Shown: positions 45,770-53,004, counted from the first letter of the stretch. The stretch: 64,000 bases of DNA from Escherichia phage ZCEC14 (OP168898.1), one strand, 5' to 3'. Notes: generated from the letters alone by a model not told the origin. Numbers and translations: made by a program.

Positions 45770-45805
45770 TACCCTATCAAAACAAATGTGAAATTGGAGA
45801 ATAAA

Positions 45806-46774
45806 ATGAAAACTGTAACTATCAATAAGGGTATCTACTTCGGTAAAGAAATCTCTGGAACTTTTGAGCTCTTAGGCGAATGGTTCCCAGATAATGCTCC
45901 GGTAGATGCACAAGGAGATGGTAAAGTTTTTGTTGAAATTGACGGTAAACGTCGCGGTGTTTGGGTTTACAAATCAGATATTTCATATGATGGTGTAAAA
46001 GTTGAAGAAGTTAAAGAATCATATGAAGATATGAAAACCCGCATTAATAAAAGATTTAATGTTATGGGAATGATGACGAATGGTATTATTAATGGAAATA
46101 TTCGTTCATTGATTATCTCTGGCGCAGCAGGTATTGGTAAAACGTATTCTTTAGATAAAGCTTTAAATAAAGCAAATGATAATGGATACATTGAATATAA
46201 AAGCATTAACGGTAAAATCTCTGGTATTGGTCTTTATGAACAGCTTTGGAATAATCGTGAAGAGAATTCTGTCCTTTTGATTGATGATGTGGATGTTTTC
46301 TCTGATATGGACATTCTTAATCTTCTAAAAGCTGCTCTGGACACTGGAGAGACCCGTAAAGTCTGCTGGAGCACTGCATCTTCTTACTTAGAAGAAAAAG
46401 GCATTGACCGTGAGTTTGAATTTAAAGGAACGATTGTTTTTATCACAAACGTTGACATTGACCGCGAATTAGACCGTGGTACTAAACTTGCTCCACATTT
46501 ACAAGCATTAGTGTCCCGCTCAGTTTATTTAGATTTGGGTGTTCACACTAATGAAGAAATTATGGTCAGGGTTGAAGATGTTATTCTTTCAACTGACATG
46601 ATGCAAAAGCGCGGTCTTTCTGATGAAGAAACTTATAAAGCATTATCATGGATGAAAGTTAATGTTAATCGTTTACGCAATGTTTCACTGCGTACTGCTC
46701 TTTATCTTGCTGACTTTATTATGACCGACAAAAACGGTTGGGAAGAAATTGCTGAGGTTACTCTTCTGAAATAA
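45806..46774 (+). CDS. P-loop ATPase (AAA-like), about 322 aa
   Basis: Walker A GAAGIGKTYS and Walker B VLLIDDVDVF; ATG 45806 after cassette RBS. Confidence 0.6.
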   Translation: MKTVTINKGIYFGKEISGTFELLGEWFPDNAPVDAQGDGKVFVEIDGKRRGVWVYKSDISYDGVKVEEVKESYEDMKTRINKRFNVMGMMTNGIINGNIRSLIISGAAGIGKTYSLDKALNKANDNGYIEYKSINGKISGIGLYEQLWNNREENSVLLIDDVDVFSDMDILNLLKAALDTGETRKVCWSTASSYLEEKGIDREFEFKGTIVFITNVDIDRELDRGTKLAPHLQALVSRSVYLDLGVHTNEEIMVRVEDVILSTDMMQKRGLSDEETYKALSWMKVNVNRLRNVSLRTALYLADFIMTDKNGWEEIAEVTLLK

Positions 46775-48236: not shown

Positions 48237-49127
48237 ATGTCAGTAGTAATTAATAATGTCAATGCAGTAATTAAATCTTTAGTTAATAAAAAAATGATGA
48301 ATGAATGGACTGTACTTCGTCGTGGAGAGCCAGATAAATTTTTTCATAGATTTAACCCAACTTTGGATTTGAATGTTATTGATAAAGATGTTCATGCCGA
48401 AATTTTAGATAAGTTTAAAGTTGATATTGGATTTGGATTAGAAAAACATTTACAGCGAACAAATGGATCTGGAATGAGTTTATCTAATCGCATTATGAAA
48501 GCCCTTAATAAAATTGGAGCATTGTCTCGTATTAACGCGAGTGAAATCCTTCGTAATTATAATAAAGGATACGACCTTTATGGTCGACTAATGCCGAAAT
48601 TATCATTTGACCAAATGATCGCAGATTTGTGGGAAAATCAACGACGATTATTAGCATTAGGCGCTCGATTAGCTAAAGGTCTAGATAAACAAATGATTTT
48701 TAAGACCAATAATACAGAAGACCTTAAATGCTTTAAATTTAGTACTCGTGGAGATGATTATTACGTCAGAGCTCACTCTACAGATTATGTTAATATGGGG
48801 CATCATCTCTGTTTAGCTTTTGAAGTTTTAAAAGAAGCTGGAACATTAGAATATTCATCTGGTGCTAAATGTCCGATTGGTTCAAATTGCATTTTAATTT
48901 ATCGCCCAGATGAATCCAGTTCATCTAAATTACCTACAAAACCTGTACCAGTTCGTAGTAACGAAAAACATTCTGAACAAATTGCTTATTTTAATAAGCA
49001 GATTGAAGAGCTAAATATTTCTATTCAGCAATATGATGATGAAATTTTCAGACTATCTGGATTGAGTAGTAAAGCTAAATCTGAGCGTGAAAAGTTAATT
49101 AAAATTGTCGATTTACTTAAATCTTAA
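48237..49127 (+). CDS. Paralog family protein 1 with C-terminal coiled coil (296 aa)
   Basis: ATG 48237 with RBS GAGGAAAAT; C-terminal heptad region; similarity to next three ORFs. Confidence 0.55.
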   Translation: MSVVINNVNAVIKSLVNKKMMNEWTVLRRGEPDKFFHRFNPTLDLNVIDKDVHAEILDKFKVDIGFGLEKHLQRTNGSGMSLSNRIMKALNKIGALSRINASEILRNYNKGYDLYGRLMPKLSFDQMIADLWENQRRLLALGARLAKGLDKQMIFKTNNTEDLKCFKFSTRGDDYYVRAHSTDYVNMGHHLCLAFEVLKEAGTLEYSSGAKCPIGSNCILIYRPDESSSSKLPTKPVPVRSNEKHSEQIAYFNKQIEELNISIQQYDDEIFRLSGLSSKAKSEREKLIKIVDLLKS

Positions 49128-49135
49128 GGAACACC

Positions 49136-50158
49136 ATGAAAACTCGTTCTCAAATTGAAGATATGGTTCGTAATGCCAGCTATACCCGTGATGTTATGAC
49201 ATTTTTGTGTGAAAATAATTTAGACCCTGATAAAGTTAATCGTGTTATTCATCACTTTAAGTATACGAATAGCAGTGAATGGGTGCGTAATTTTAGTAAA
49301 GCAGGGTATATTACACAAATGACTGCTCGTGAACAGCTCACCGATTTCTGTAAAACTATTGATTATAAAAATCCTTTGATTGTTCAAGGCGTTGGTCAAA
49401 GTAAGGTCGATTTATCATCTGGATTTTTCAATCCAAATCATTATCGTATTGAATGGAGATTTATTGCTCTGTTCCGTAGACAATTAAAGCAAATTTTGTC
49501 TACTGCTAGTCGATTAAAAGGCTCTGATATTAACTTAAAGAATCTGAAATTTGATGGTTATACTCTTCAGATGGAAGTAAGACCGTTAAAAGAAAATAAT
49601 AGAACTGCGCGAATTAGCTTTAAACCTAATACAAAAAATTCTCTTTCAATTTGTGAATGCCTTAAATCGCAGTTGACAGAAGCATTTAAGTATATGGATG
49701 TTGTTGCTGCTGTTCAATCTAAGATTTTACCTCGTTTTGAGCGAAATTGGGAACATACAACAACATATGAACTTGATATGATCGTTTCATTTAAATACGA
49801 TTTTTTGAGAAAGGACGAAGTCACACAAGAGAAAAAGCAGGAAGTGCAAGATAACTTAAATTTATCCAATTACTCATCAAACGATCCTAAATTTTGGATG
49901 TATAGTTCAGGTAATAAAGATGCATGGAAATTCAATAAAGTGAATTTTCTTCCTATTGAAAATCCGAGTCTTAAACCTGTTGAAAAATGGCATGCAGATG
50001 CGATTGAGAAGTCTATCAAGGCAGTAGATGATGAACTCGTTGAAGCAACTAATGAAGTGTTAGAAGCTGAAAAGGTGTTAGAAAAAGCTCAAGAAAAAGT
50101 CAAAAATCTCACGAAGCAACGTTCTAAACTGAACAATGCACTAAATGCACTGAACTAG
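49136..50158 (+). CDS. Paralog family protein 2 with C-terminal coiled coil (340 aa)
   Basis: Shares IEWRFIALFRRQLKQILSTASRL-type block with 50216 ORF; C-terminal coiled coil. Confidence 0.55.
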   Translation: MKTRSQIEDMVRNASYTRDVMTFLCENNLDPDKVNRVIHHFKYTNSSEWVRNFSKAGYITQMTAREQLTDFCKTIDYKNPLIVQGVGQSKVDLSSGFFNPNHYRIEWRFIALFRRQLKQILSTASRLKGSDINLKNLKFDGYTLQMEVRPLKENNRTARISFKPNTKNSLSICECLKSQLTEAFKYMDVVAAVQSKILPRFERNWEHTTTYELDMIVSFKYDFLRKDEVTQEKKQEVQDNLNLSNYSSNDPKFWMYSSGNKDAWKFNKVNFLPIENPSLKPVEKWHADAIEKSIKAVDDELVEATNEVLEAEKVLEKAQEKVKNLTKQRSKLNNALNALN

Positions 50159-50187
50159 TTTACTTTACCACAAGGATGTGGTATAAT
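50159..50187 (+). promoter_or_regulatory. T4-type early promoter
   Basis: GTTTAC 50159-50164, TGGTATAAT extended -10 at 50179-50187, RBS GAGGAGATTAATATG. Confidence 0.6.
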
Positions 50188-50215
50188 GTTCTTACTTTCT
50201 ACTGAGGAGATTAAT

Positions 50216-51217
50216 ATGACTCGTAACGAATATATCAAATCATTTAATAGCGTTATTGATGATAAAGTTAAACCTATGTCTAGTCAGAATAACGTTATTT
50301 CCATTATCAATCAATGGCTCAATAATATTGATGTAAGCATTGTTTCTTCCAGCAAATTTATTCATGAAGTTCATAAAATTTCTAGTCGCGAAGATAAAGG
50401 TGATATTAAGGAAACCTTTAAAGGTTCTCGTCTTCTTTCATATTTAGTTAATCAGGATATTCTTGGTAATTTTGGGAAAGAAATTAAACGAACCAAAGAT
50501 GTAGTAGGATATAATTGGTTTGGTGATGTTAATTCTTATCATCTTAATAATAAAGAAGACCCTGAGAATATTTTTACTCGTCGTTGGATTAGTAATTTCA
50601 GACTTTTCAAAAAGCAAATTCTAAAATCAGCTTCTAAATTATGCTATGGTGATTATCGTCAAATTCATCCTTGGGCTTCTGACATGATTATCATAAAAGA
50701 ATATGAACTTGATAAAAATAAAGCAGCTATTTTTGTGAATTATGGATTTTTTACACCAGAAGCTAATCAAAAGAACATTAATAAATTTTTCTCAATTGCT
50801 AGTGATATAACTCGTCAATTAGAGACTGCATTATTTTGTATGGAAACGGTAGAAAATATTCATACTTATCCTTTTAAGAATATGTGCGGCTGGGAAGGAT
50901 ATAAAATTGTAGTTAGTCTCCGTGAAGTAAAGTGCGCGTACTCACCGACTGATAAAGAAATTTACCAACAAAAATGTGATGAAATTGTGAATACTCCTAA
51001 AGAAGAAACTACCCTTGAGGAACTAATGGAATGTCTTGATGATTCACTTGAACCGGTAGAAATTCGTCCAGAAGTTATTGCACTAGAAAAAGCTTATAAA
51101 GAAGTTCTAGAAATTTCTAATAAAGCACAGAAAGAATATGAGCAGGCTAAAAGGATTTGGGAAGAATCTGTTAATCGCCTGGATCGTCTTGAACAAGCTT
51201 TACAGTTAATTAAGTAA
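50216..51217 (+). CDS. Paralog family protein 3 with C-terminal coiled coil (333 aa)
   Basis: RRWISNFRLFKKQILKSASKL block parallels 49136 ORF; ATG 50216. Confidence 0.55.
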   Translation: MTRNEYIKSFNSVIDDKVKPMSSQNNVISIINQWLNNIDVSIVSSSKFIHEVHKISSREDKGDIKETFKGSRLLSYLVNQDILGNFGKEIKRTKDVVGYNWFGDVNSYHLNNKEDPENIFTRRWISNFRLFKKQILKSASKLCYGDYRQIHPWASDMIIIKEYELDKNKAAIFVNYGFFTPEANQKNINKFFSIASDITRQLETALFCMETVENIHTYPFKNMCGWEGYKIVVSLREVKCAYSPTDKEIYQQKCDEIVNTPKEETTLEELMECLDDSLEPVEIRPEVIALEKAYKEVLEISNKAQKEYEQAKRIWEESVNRLDRLEQALQLIK

Positions 51218-51269
51218 TTTAAAGCCAAGGATGGCTCGGAGTATAAATCATTAACCAAGTGAGAAGAAC

Positions 51270-52199
51270 ATGAAAACTCGTAAACATTATATTGATTATT
51301 TTGATAGTCTTATTACTAAACACCGTAATTATCAGATTGGGCACAGAGCAGTAATCAATAATATTCTTCGTGATTTCTTTCAATATGTTGGCCAGGAAAA
51401 TCATATCTGTAAAGATACTCAAAACGCTTATTCTCATTCGTTAGGCAATTTGCTTGAATGGTTTAAACGTTCTCGTCTGTTATCTTCTACTGTAGCTAGT
51501 GATAACATTAAAAACTTTATGAAGCCGAGCTTCATTAAATCTGAGACATCTATAACCGATTTGGTTGAATTTACTATTGTTAACGATGTTAAAAAGACCC
51601 ATTTGGCTGATTGGTTATCTACCATTCCCGAAACTAAATTTGCTGATAAATTCGCTTGTCAATTCAATGACCAAGTGAATATGCTTTTTAAGCATGCTCG
51701 TAAACTATTTACCGCGGGCGATGACCGTACAAATACAGTTCATGTTAAGGATTGGGTTATTGCTGATGAAGTAACACACAAGCCAGGTGGTTCATCAGTA
51801 TTAATTAATATCCAGGTTCCTTATTATTACTCACGTAATCTCGGCACCATGACAGCTAGAGAAATTAATAAGCACAACAAAATTATTCGTTCGTTGTCTT
51901 ATAAACTCTGCACGATGGTGGAGATGATGGACGTAGTGGAAATGTATGACGAAACCGAAGATAATGGTTCAATGCTGTACAGTTCACGCATTCTAATTAA
52001 ACTGAAGAACCCTAATACATATAAGCAAGTTGTAAAAGAACCTAAAGTAGAAAAGGTTGATAACTTGAGCGAAGAACGTGAATATCTCAAATCTCGACTG
52101 GTTGAAGTTGAAGCCCAAATTGCAGAACACACCAAATTGTTAAAAGCTCTTAATGCAAAAGCAAATGGTTTACGTAATGCTATTGAGGTATTGAAATGA
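51270..52199 (+). CDS. Paralog family protein 4 with C-terminal coiled coil (309 aa)
   Basis: Similar N-terminal MKTRxxYIDxF and C-terminal coiled coil to 49136 ORF. Confidence 0.55.
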   Translation: MKTRKHYIDYFDSLITKHRNYQIGHRAVINNILRDFFQYVGQENHICKDTQNAYSHSLGNLLEWFKRSRLLSSTVASDNIKNFMKPSFIKSETSITDLVEFTIVNDVKKTHLADWLSTIPETKFADKFACQFNDQVNMLFKHARKLFTAGDDRTNTVHVKDWVIADEVTHKPGGSSVLINIQVPYYYSRNLGTMTAREINKHNKIIRSLSYKLCTMVEMMDVVEMYDETEDNGSMLYSSRILIKLKNPNTYKQVVKEPKVEKVDNLSEEREYLKSRLVEVEAQIAEHTKLLKALNAKANGLRNAIEVLK

Positions 52200-52510
52200 A
52201 AAAGCGTCTATTAGAAGACATTGCAGCTTCAAGTAATTCTAGTCTAATTAAAATTATTATGGCTGGTGAAGAAGACGATTTGGAAATGCGTGGAAAGATT
52301 CATGGTTGTGATGATTATAGCAGCCCTATTAATTGGGATTCTGTAATGGTCATGGTTGAACGCCGCGAACGTGCTTCTAAAAACGTTCCTAATTGCCCTG
52401 AATGTGGAACTGAACAGGTCCAATTGATCCATTGGCAGACTAATAATCTTCGTTATAAATGTCGCCATTGTAAACACCGATTTGACCGAGAAGAAAATGA
52501 CAAAGCGTAA
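52196..52510 (+). CDS. Zinc-ribbon protein (104 aa)
   Basis: CPECG...CRHCKHRF four-Cys motif. Confidence 0.5.
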
Positions 52511-52739
52511 AGAATATATGGAAACTGCTGAAAAGGCAGTCCGTGAATTAGCAATAGCTTATTATAATGAACATGGTAAATTTCCTGATAGATACAGCGT
52601 GCTTAAATCTGCTTTAACTCGTTCATATAAAAATATGCTATCAGAAGTAAGTGATATTATATACAAACATAAAGAACAAACGGGCCAAAGTCTTGATTAC
52701 GACGAGACTTTTAAACGAGTACTAGGAATTAAGGAATAA
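52497..52739 (+). CDS. Hypothetical protein (about 80 aa)
   Basis: ATG 52497 (ORF-track start 52482 is TTG); overlaps upstream ORF end. Confidence 0.45.
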
Positions 52740-52740
52740 T

Positions 52741-53004
52741 ATGTTTAAAGTATATGGTTATGATAGCAACATTCATAAATGCGTGTATTGTGATAATGCA
52801 AAACGTCTTTTGACCGTGAAGAAACAGCCGTTTGAATTTATCAACATTATGCCGGAAAAAGGTGTTTTTGATGATGAGAAAATTGCTGAGCTTCTGACGA
52901 AACTAGGTCGTGATACTCAAATCGGTTTGACAATGCCACAAGTATTTGCTCCTGATGGAAGTCATATTGGTGGATTTGACCAATTACGGGAATACTTTAA
53001 ATGA
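52741..53004 (+). CDS. nrdC: Glutaredoxin/thioredoxin NrdC
   Basis: 87 aa as T4 NrdC; active-site VYCDNAKRL (CxxC-type) and thioredoxin fold. Confidence 0.85.
   Translation: MFKVYGYDSNIHKCVYCDNAKRLLTVKKQPFEFINIMPEKGVFDDEKIAELLTKLGRDTQIGLTMPQVFAPDGSHIGGFDQLREYFK

Follow-up and report, generated by a model that had tools for sequence, protein, structure and literature searches.

The nrdC.6-nrdC.3 array of a T4-like phage: three old gene lineages around an anti-Dsr1 gene, and a candidate counter-defence locus

How did four large genes of similar build come to lie side by side in a T4-like phage, and what might they do there? This question is raised by positions 48237 to 52199 of a stretch of DNA from Escherichia phage ZCEC14 (OP168898.1), hereafter the window, which is 64,000 nucleotides (nt) long and belongs to a Tequatrovirus. 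The 4.4-kb region holding the array matches 653 phage records, the best of them Tequatrovirus genomes at ~96-97% DNA identity. The original prediction for this region was of four consecutive open reading frames (ORFs), starting at 48237, 49136, 50216 and 51270, and these are all present on the plus strand, each with a Shine-Dalgarno-like GAGG/GGA ahead of its ATG. That prediction missed the identity of the genes with T4 nrdC.3-nrdC.6, as well as the published anti-Dsr1 role of nrdC.5. The ORFs, here called A, B, C and D, can be assigned as orthologues of the catalogued T4 genes nrdC.6, nrdC.5, nrdC.4 and nrdC.3, respectively, and are as follows (aa, amino acids; pI, isoelectric point; E, expectation value):

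48237..49127, plus strand: A, T4 nrdC.6 orthologue, 296 aa, pI 9.2; matches phrog_2257 with E 1.8e-151 and carries the PF26899 label.
49136..50158, plus strand: B, T4 nrdC.5 orthologue, 340 aa, pI 9.15; matches PF23882 (DUF7235) with E 3.7e-130, and phrog_2351.
50216..51217, plus strand: C, T4 nrdC.4 orthologue, 333 aa, pI 5.9; matches phrog_1435 with E 2.8e-166; PF26897.
51270..52199, plus strand: D, an nrdC.3 allele, 309 aa, pI 9.1; matches phrog_1435 with E 1.1e-114; PF26897.

In the T4 reference record the same genes are collinear (nrdC.6-nrdC.5-nrdC.4-nrdC.3) on the early-transcribed strand, flanked by nrdC.10/nrdC.7 and nrdC.2/nrdC.1/nrdC. Protein identity to T4 is 97.7% for A (over residues 1-259), 95% for B, 90.7% for C and 59.7% for D. 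Within Tequatrovirus A is the best conserved of the four, with 472 records at 95-99%. The strand opposite the array holds short ORFs only, and a scan of the array region against Rfam gave no match. Homologues of nrdC.3-nrdC.11 are often labelled 'thioredoxin' in GenBank, a label apparently propagated from the gene-name prefix nrdC, and one is labelled 'Mur ligase domain-containing protein'.

Are the four proteins related to one another? The idea that all four are paralogues stands firmly for C and D and well for B; for A, whose body gives no significant sequence signal, it is tentative. Judged by sequence, C and D are clear paralogues (27% identity over 226 aa by BLASTP, E 4e-8). They form the sole significant pair in pairwise BLASTP of the four proteins, in which A and B give nothing below E 0.8. 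A four-way MAFFT alignment places the A, B and C/D lineages at 16-23% identity, values that are not evidence on their own. Profile-profile comparison can reach further, and here its raw statistics are unreliable. An uncalibrated hhalign match between B and D, at 95-97% probability, was rejected: it pairs B 146-254 with D 35-133, out of register, contradicts the secondary structure and can be put down, as an artefact, to the very low diversity of the alignments (Neff ~1.8). Scores were therefore calibrated against 50 alignments in which blocks of 10 columns had been shuffled. Once the C-terminal helix is taken out, the comparison of B with C/D gives a score of 38.3, versus 16.4 +/- 3.2 for the shuffled alignments (z score 6.8, with 0/50 reaching the score), and the alignment is colinear and in register over 172 columns. 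Outside the coiled coil, B is probably a distant homologue of C/D. The block originally noticed as shared, IEWRFIALFRRQLKQILSTASRL at B 105-127 and RRWISNFRLFKKQILKSASKL in C, lies inside this in-register alignment. An N-terminal KTR..Y motif is common to B, C and D, and a helix motif, ..L...A[SR][RK]L..G.D, is conserved in the same order relative to it. The signal linking C with D, and B with C/D, is located in the globular body and goes beyond the low-complexity coiled coil.

Predicted structures can also be compared. In BFVD, the best match of the B model is A0A1Z1LY96 of Serratia phage CBH8 (E 6.8e-7), which the C model matches with E 2.2e-4, and A0A2S1GM98 of Erwinia phage Cronus is matched by the B and C models alike. 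The C model matches 300-370 aa proteins of many T4-like phages (E 1e-7 to 1e-4), the Foldseek alignments being full-length with template modelling (TM) scores of up to 0.49. One of its matches belongs to the A family, namely NrdC.6 of Dhakavirus JS10 (Foldseek E 2.8e-5, TM 0.44 on a 280-residue target), and a TM of 0.44 exceeds what one 50-residue helix could contribute. In calibrated hhalign comparisons the tail of A against the C/D tail is marginal (z 2.6), and full-length A against a non-redundant profile dominated by C/D-type sequences is colinear with z ~6. Taken with the fold match, A is a likely but unproven member of the same superfamily.

The models also show how these proteins may be built. 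The AlphaFold model of C, with a mean predicted local distance difference test score (pLDDT) of 82.6, is helical at its N-terminus, continues through a central alpha/beta domain and a flexible linker and closes with a C-terminal helix of ~50 residues; the linker, at residues 261-287, is disordered and acidic. The model of B has a pLDDT of 54.9 overall and follows the same order as that of C: N-terminal helices, the long helix bearing the motif, a beta hairpin, a helix, a second beta hairpin, a disordered linker and the terminal helix. A and D are of comparable size and have a heptad-rich tail as in B and C. A heptad-rich C terminus had been predicted for each protein, and a heptad score finds one in all four (A 243-283, B 282-340, C 287-318 and D 259-309). 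The tails can be placed as follows:

48963..49124, plus strand: heptad-rich C-terminal helix of A, after KPVPVRSNEKH and ending IVDLLKS (heptad score).
49976..50155, plus strand: long C-terminal helix of B (residues 281-339), after KPVEKWH and ending ALNALN (AlphaFold model, local pLDDT 75-89; heptad score).
51068..51214, plus strand: long C-terminal helix of C (residues 285-332), ending ALQLIK (AlphaFold model; heptad score).
52044..52196, plus strand: heptad-rich C-terminal helix of D (residues ~259-309), ending AIEVLK (heptad score).

In every family, other genera included, the ending ..A[LI]..L[KN] lies 2 residues or fewer from the stop, and a [KE]P[VI] motif precedes the tail in all of them. 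For the central alpha/beta domain, a tail terminator or tail completion (gpU-like) fold was considered and dropped, its structural match scoring Z <7. The T4 reference record (NC_000866, ~52007-52893; positions 1090-1994 of our locus L002) shows a 1-nt deletion in nrdC.6 relative to the window, GAGCTAAATATT against GAGCT-GATATT. As a result the annotated T4 NrdC.6 (275 aa) has lost its last 37 residues, the coiled-coil tail, by frameshift, with another frame still encoding the whole tail. The deletion arose either by mutation in the lab strain or by a sequencing error.

Family databases divide the array differently, as Pfam and PHROGs split the four proteins over three families. B matches PF23882 with 434 bits, residues 1-340 aligning to model positions 1-307, where the gathering score is 30 bits; A, C and D gave no match to this model at E up to 1, so that B is the sole member among the four. 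C and D are full-length members of the NrdC.3/NrdC.4 family by the phrog_1435 profile, and their assignment to PF26897 is taken from precomputed labels on all homologues found. A is a full-length member of the NrdC.6 family, phrog_2257 (residues 1-296 on profile 1-303). Its PF26899 assignment is the label on a single A-like database match (P0154); the joint database search for A- and B-type proteins returned candidates dominated by B-type and recovered one A-type protein. A further profile, phrog_26858, matches both C-type bodies and B-type tails. Among characterised families and solved structures, none matches any of the four in Pfam, PHROGs, PDB (by fold and by sequence) or PADLOC. When a HMMER profile of C/D was run against 1.84 billion representatives it found 10 matches, all C/D-type or fragments and none A- or B-like; with ten clusters only among so many, the C/D family is confined to T4-like phages. 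A scan of IMG/VR for the locus gave 13 loci, all in genera found by the other searches. Relative to T4 NrdC.5, the reference member of DUF7235, B is thus the orthologue, C and D are probable remote homologues that fall, with A, outside the DUF7235 model, and A shares build and locus. PF26897 and PF26899, families without an assigned function, have been treated as unrelated to each other and to DUF7235, whereas here they are linked by calibrated profiles (B with C/D) and by fold (C with the A family).

With relatedness of this depth, how old is the array? It was originally read as a four-fold tandem expansion and thought unusual, a view that does not hold for any recent event. DNA-level repeats were not found in the array, except for a ATGAAAACTCGT start common to B and D and for an FK[GR]SRL motif of 17 nt that C has in common with D, and the absence of repeats beyond these two short motifs rules out recent duplication. 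A three-gene cassette is found elsewhere. Dhakavirus and Gaprivervirus have A-like, B-like and C-like genes at the locus, and the Mosigvirus genes there are A-like (33% identity), B-like (26%) and D-like (76%); in four Tevenvirinae genera A-like, B-like and C- or D-like genes stand in the same order. A comparison of copy number across T4-like genomes, proposed at the outset as a check, brings out one change and no other, in that Tequatrovirus alone carries both C and D. C and D are 27% identical, versus 45-50% for C between genera. Since their split is deeper than the divergence of C between genera, the pair is either an old duplication with differential loss or was reunited by recombination. 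A, B and C/D are best described as three old lineages, with Tequatrovirus holding both C and D.

Between nrdC.10 and nrdC the locus is also occupied in Bp7, VR26, PhAPEC2, Acj61, UTI-K4 and KMB19. Jiaodavirus has a single member, the 324-aa protein of UTI-K4, which is a remote relative of C/D (z 11). Karamvirus likewise has one, the 332-aa protein of KMB19 (L021, 12544-13542), a remote relative of A (z 9.2, or 5.7 without the tail). In Acinetobacter phage Acj61 the adjacent genes p120 and p121 lie between nrdC.10 and nrdC, and they are equated with two Acj61 proteins matched by the C model on the basis of equal length. Some further candidates were set aside as having neither a coiled-coil tail nor profile similarity: the 257-262 aa neighbours of the Jiaodavirus and Karamvirus members, Acj61p118 and two ~350-aa Aeromonas phage genes.

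Variation between phages is concentrated in one gene. The proposal of a diversifying family is right for nrdC.3, which is strongly diversified between phages, but gene-wide selection is purifying, with ratios of nonsynonymous to synonymous substitution (dN/dS) of 0.07-0.29. By gene, A has a dN/dS of 0.07-0.14, B of 0.14-0.25, C of 0.11-0.20 and D of 0.12-0.29; among the neighbours, nrdC.10 has 0.03-0.08 and nrdC ~0. Selection on the array is relaxed yet purifying. Three allele classes of nrdC.3 can be distinguished by identity to D, at 93-98%, 75-77% (Mosigvirus) and 58-60% (including T4 and RB32), so that the window carries an allele class differing from T4's own NrdC.3. In the comparison with one class, identity is 90-100% over the first 30 and last 60 residues and 30-53% over residues ~90-270; in that with another, the N-terminus alone differs. 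As aligned, the classes are mosaics, and the tail of D is nearly invariant among otherwise divergent alleles. Just downstream of D, nrdC.2 (window 52196-52510) has a divergent allele in two of the compared loci, L006 and L007 (81% nucleotide identity, dS ~0.9; T4 96.5%), and its mosaic boundaries differ from those of nrdC.3. The single Karamvirus member, in KMB19 and 33 related records, falls into two allele classes (90-94% and 62-65%), echoing nrdC.3.

Gene decay and fusion can also be seen. In phage vB_EcoM_G8 nrdC.4 is split into two ORFs (L011, 6971-7552 and 7527-8003), and BFVD holds nrdC.4 fragments of 155-158 aa from phages G8 and T2 (A0A482N302, A0A2Z5WKJ2), which suggests natural pseudogenisation. 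A natural chimera of 299 aa (P0056) fuses NrdC.5 146-267 to NrdC.3 136-309 with deletion of nrdC.4, the junction lying at a KVN/QVN microhomology between non-homologous positions. Several other database records span only part of an array gene.

When are these genes expressed? One of them had been credited with an early promoter of its own at 50159, and the motif is there:

50159..50187, plus strand: T4 early-type sigma-70 promoter motif upstream of C, GTTTACT-N17-TG-n-TATAAT, with 10/12 consensus positions and an extended -10 TG.

This promoter is predicted from sequence and conservation. Promoter-like sites as a class number 33, versus 31 expected in shuffled sequence, and so it is conservation rather than the match itself that carries weight: both hexamers are kept in T4, Dhakavirus Bp7 and Gaprivervirus VR26. 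Position on the early strand, together with this conserved early-type promoter, points to early expression of the array. Two small elements were noticed nearby. A 7-bp hairpin, TACCACAAGGATGTGGTA (window 50166-50183), was flagged by a terminator scan; it falls within the spacer of the promoter ahead of nrdC.4 and shares bases with the extended -10 region. The other, TATAAATC at window 51241-51248, lies in the 52 nt separating C from D and differs by one base from the T4 late-promoter consensus, TATAAATA.

The published anchor for function is nrdC.5. Srikant et al. (2022; PMC9391042) found that a T4 clone in which compensatory deletions had arisen does not plate on ECOR17 or on MG1655 carrying ECOR17 dsr1, and that plasmid-expressed nrdC.5 restores plating of the T4 deletion mutant on dsr1 cells. 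As described there, Dsr1 is a sirtuin defence that T4 NrdC.5 overcomes. A 2026 study found that the sensor of Dsr1, which it has in common with Avs7, is triggered by the phage major capsid protein (PMC13581612). As likely relatives of anti-Dsr1 nrdC.5, nrdC.3, nrdC.4 and nrdC.6 become candidate immune-evasion genes. We favour the reading, at a probability of about 50%, that this is a locus of early, oligomeric counter-defence proteins with common ancestry, whose globular bodies each silence a different host immune protein. All four proteins would descend from one ancient gene, and NrdC.3-NrdC.6 would be made early, ahead of the appearance of capsid protein. The C-terminal helix is predicted to mediate oligomerisation. 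NrdC.5, if it binds directly, would occupy Dsr1 before the capsid protein arrives, while the globular body of each neighbour may bind and silence another host immune protein. Specificity would be set by the central domain, which could be swapped between the conserved ends by recombination among co-infecting phages. A bolder form, which we consider speculative, extends this to the whole nrdC.10-nrdC locus across Straboviridae as a set of recombination-shuffled, modular immune-receptor blockers: the N-terminal segment and coiled-coil tail would serve as handles for recombination and oligomerisation, the swapped central domain would retarget the proteins among sensors of phage structural proteins (capsid sensors of the Dsr1/Avs7 type), and NrdC.3, NrdC.4 and NrdC.6 would each neutralise a distinct defence system.

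Several results weigh against this counter-defence reading, and some of them lead to other explanations. Functional data are confined to NrdC.5, and its direct binding to Dsr1 is an assumption. The body of A gives z 0.6 against C/D and 2.3 against B by calibrated hhalign, neither of them significant, and A is tied to the rest by one Foldseek match and the shared tail; fold matches of B are weak evidence, given the low confidence of its model (pLDDT 54.9). It is improbable, though arguable, that the array is a conserved operon of essentially unrelated proteins, in which A, and perhaps B, came to resemble C/D by convergence, through coiled-coil composition and a common small alpha/beta fold. The three separate Pfam and PHROG families would fit this, as would the failure of the C/D HMMER profile to find any A- or B-like protein among the 1.84 billion representatives, the lack of signal between the bodies of A and C/D, and the high-probability yet out-of-register B-D match, which exposes how unreliable such statistics can be. 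Yet B against C/D is significant and colinear under shuffle calibration without the tail, the KTR and helix motifs occur in the same order, full-length Foldseek alignments with TM up to 0.49 go beyond what a single helix could contribute, and other genera have intermediate proteins at this locus. The basic pI of A, B and D (~9.1-9.2) would also suit nucleic-acid binding, and the tight conservation of A in the genus (dN/dS 0.07-0.14) is not what a typical arms-race gene would show. These properties lead to the notion of early proteins for host takeover, binding either nucleic acid or the machinery of transcription and replication, with an indirect effect of NrdC.5 on Dsr1. The net charge of +5 to +11 on the bodies of A, B and D, the fairly strong constraint on A and neighbours that serve nucleotide metabolism or DNA transactions (nrdC, gene 49 and nrdC.10/11) speak for such a role; we nonetheless find it rather unlikely, as C is acidic, the array genes are dispensable and variably present, and searches of Pfam, PHROGs and PDB detect no DNA- or RNA-binding domain.

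That the three lineages keep occurring together could also mean joint rather than separate action. A, B and C/D might then be joined through their related C-terminal helices into a single early hetero-oligomer, with C and D as alternative third subunits. In keeping with this, A-, B- and C/D-like genes co-occur in the same order in the four Tevenvirinae genera, the ..A[LI]..L[KN] tail follows the [KE]P[VI] motif in all families, and phrog_26858 spans a C-type body and a B-type tail. On the other hand, nrdC.5 alone rescued the T4 mutant on dsr1 cells, the deletion in that mutant being of unstated extent in the portion of the report concerned (PMC9391042). Phages with a split or deleted nrdC.4 exist, Jiaodavirus and Karamvirus carry one member each, and NrdC.6 of the T4 reference lacks its tail through the frameshift. 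We regard such a complex as doubtful.

The counter-defence reading can also be compared with known systems. A functional analogy is proposed with DSAD1 of an SPbeta-like phage (PMC10973363, PMC11087589), a phage protein which, by binding a defence-associated sirtuin, keeps a structural phage protein from activating it. The target of DSAD1 is DSR2, a sensor of the tail tube protein, whereas Dsr1 senses the capsid protein, and the analogy does not extend to family membership. In T4-like phages, the dmd-tifA-adfA 'anti-TA island' (PMC9391042), TA being toxin-antitoxin, resembles the array in being clustered, early and non-essential, in showing presence/absence and allelic variation and in having at least one counter-defence role. 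Members of the island are small, unrelated proteins (PMC9391042), whereas neighbours in the array appear related and have a common coiled-coil tail.

The array genes have long been known, and T4-like genomes ordinarily carry the array as a conserved segment. The gain is a refinement and not a new kind of system. The additions are modest: three Pfam families without an assigned function are tied to anti-Dsr1 NrdC.5, the locus is seen to be conserved across Straboviridae, and nrdC.3 shows cassette-like mosaicism. Around half of T4 genes are without an assigned function, and early accessory genes keep yielding counter-defence factors. If NrdC.3, NrdC.4 and NrdC.6 are relatives of NrdC.5, they offer three concrete candidate inhibitors of other bacterial immune systems. 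The conserved N-terminus, variable centre and invariant tail of nrdC.3 would provide a ready map for specificity swaps. For therapeutic T4-like phages, host range may depend on the alleles carried at the nrdC.10-nrdC locus.

Two observations concern the neighbourhood of the array. The ATPase-like neighbour nrdC.10 (window 45788-46774, with the P-loop GAAGIGKT) is conserved far more widely than the array and is found in 1311 phage records, which include T4-like phages of Vibrio, Aeromonas and Acinetobacter as well as several jumbo phages (PA5oct and Atu_ph07 among them). In Acj61 (L019, 1229-3938) a gene for nicotinamide phosphoribosyl transferase adjoins one for ribose-phosphate pyrophosphokinase, a pair that looks like an NAD+ reconstitution pathway of the type reported to counter NAD-depleting defences such as DSR1.

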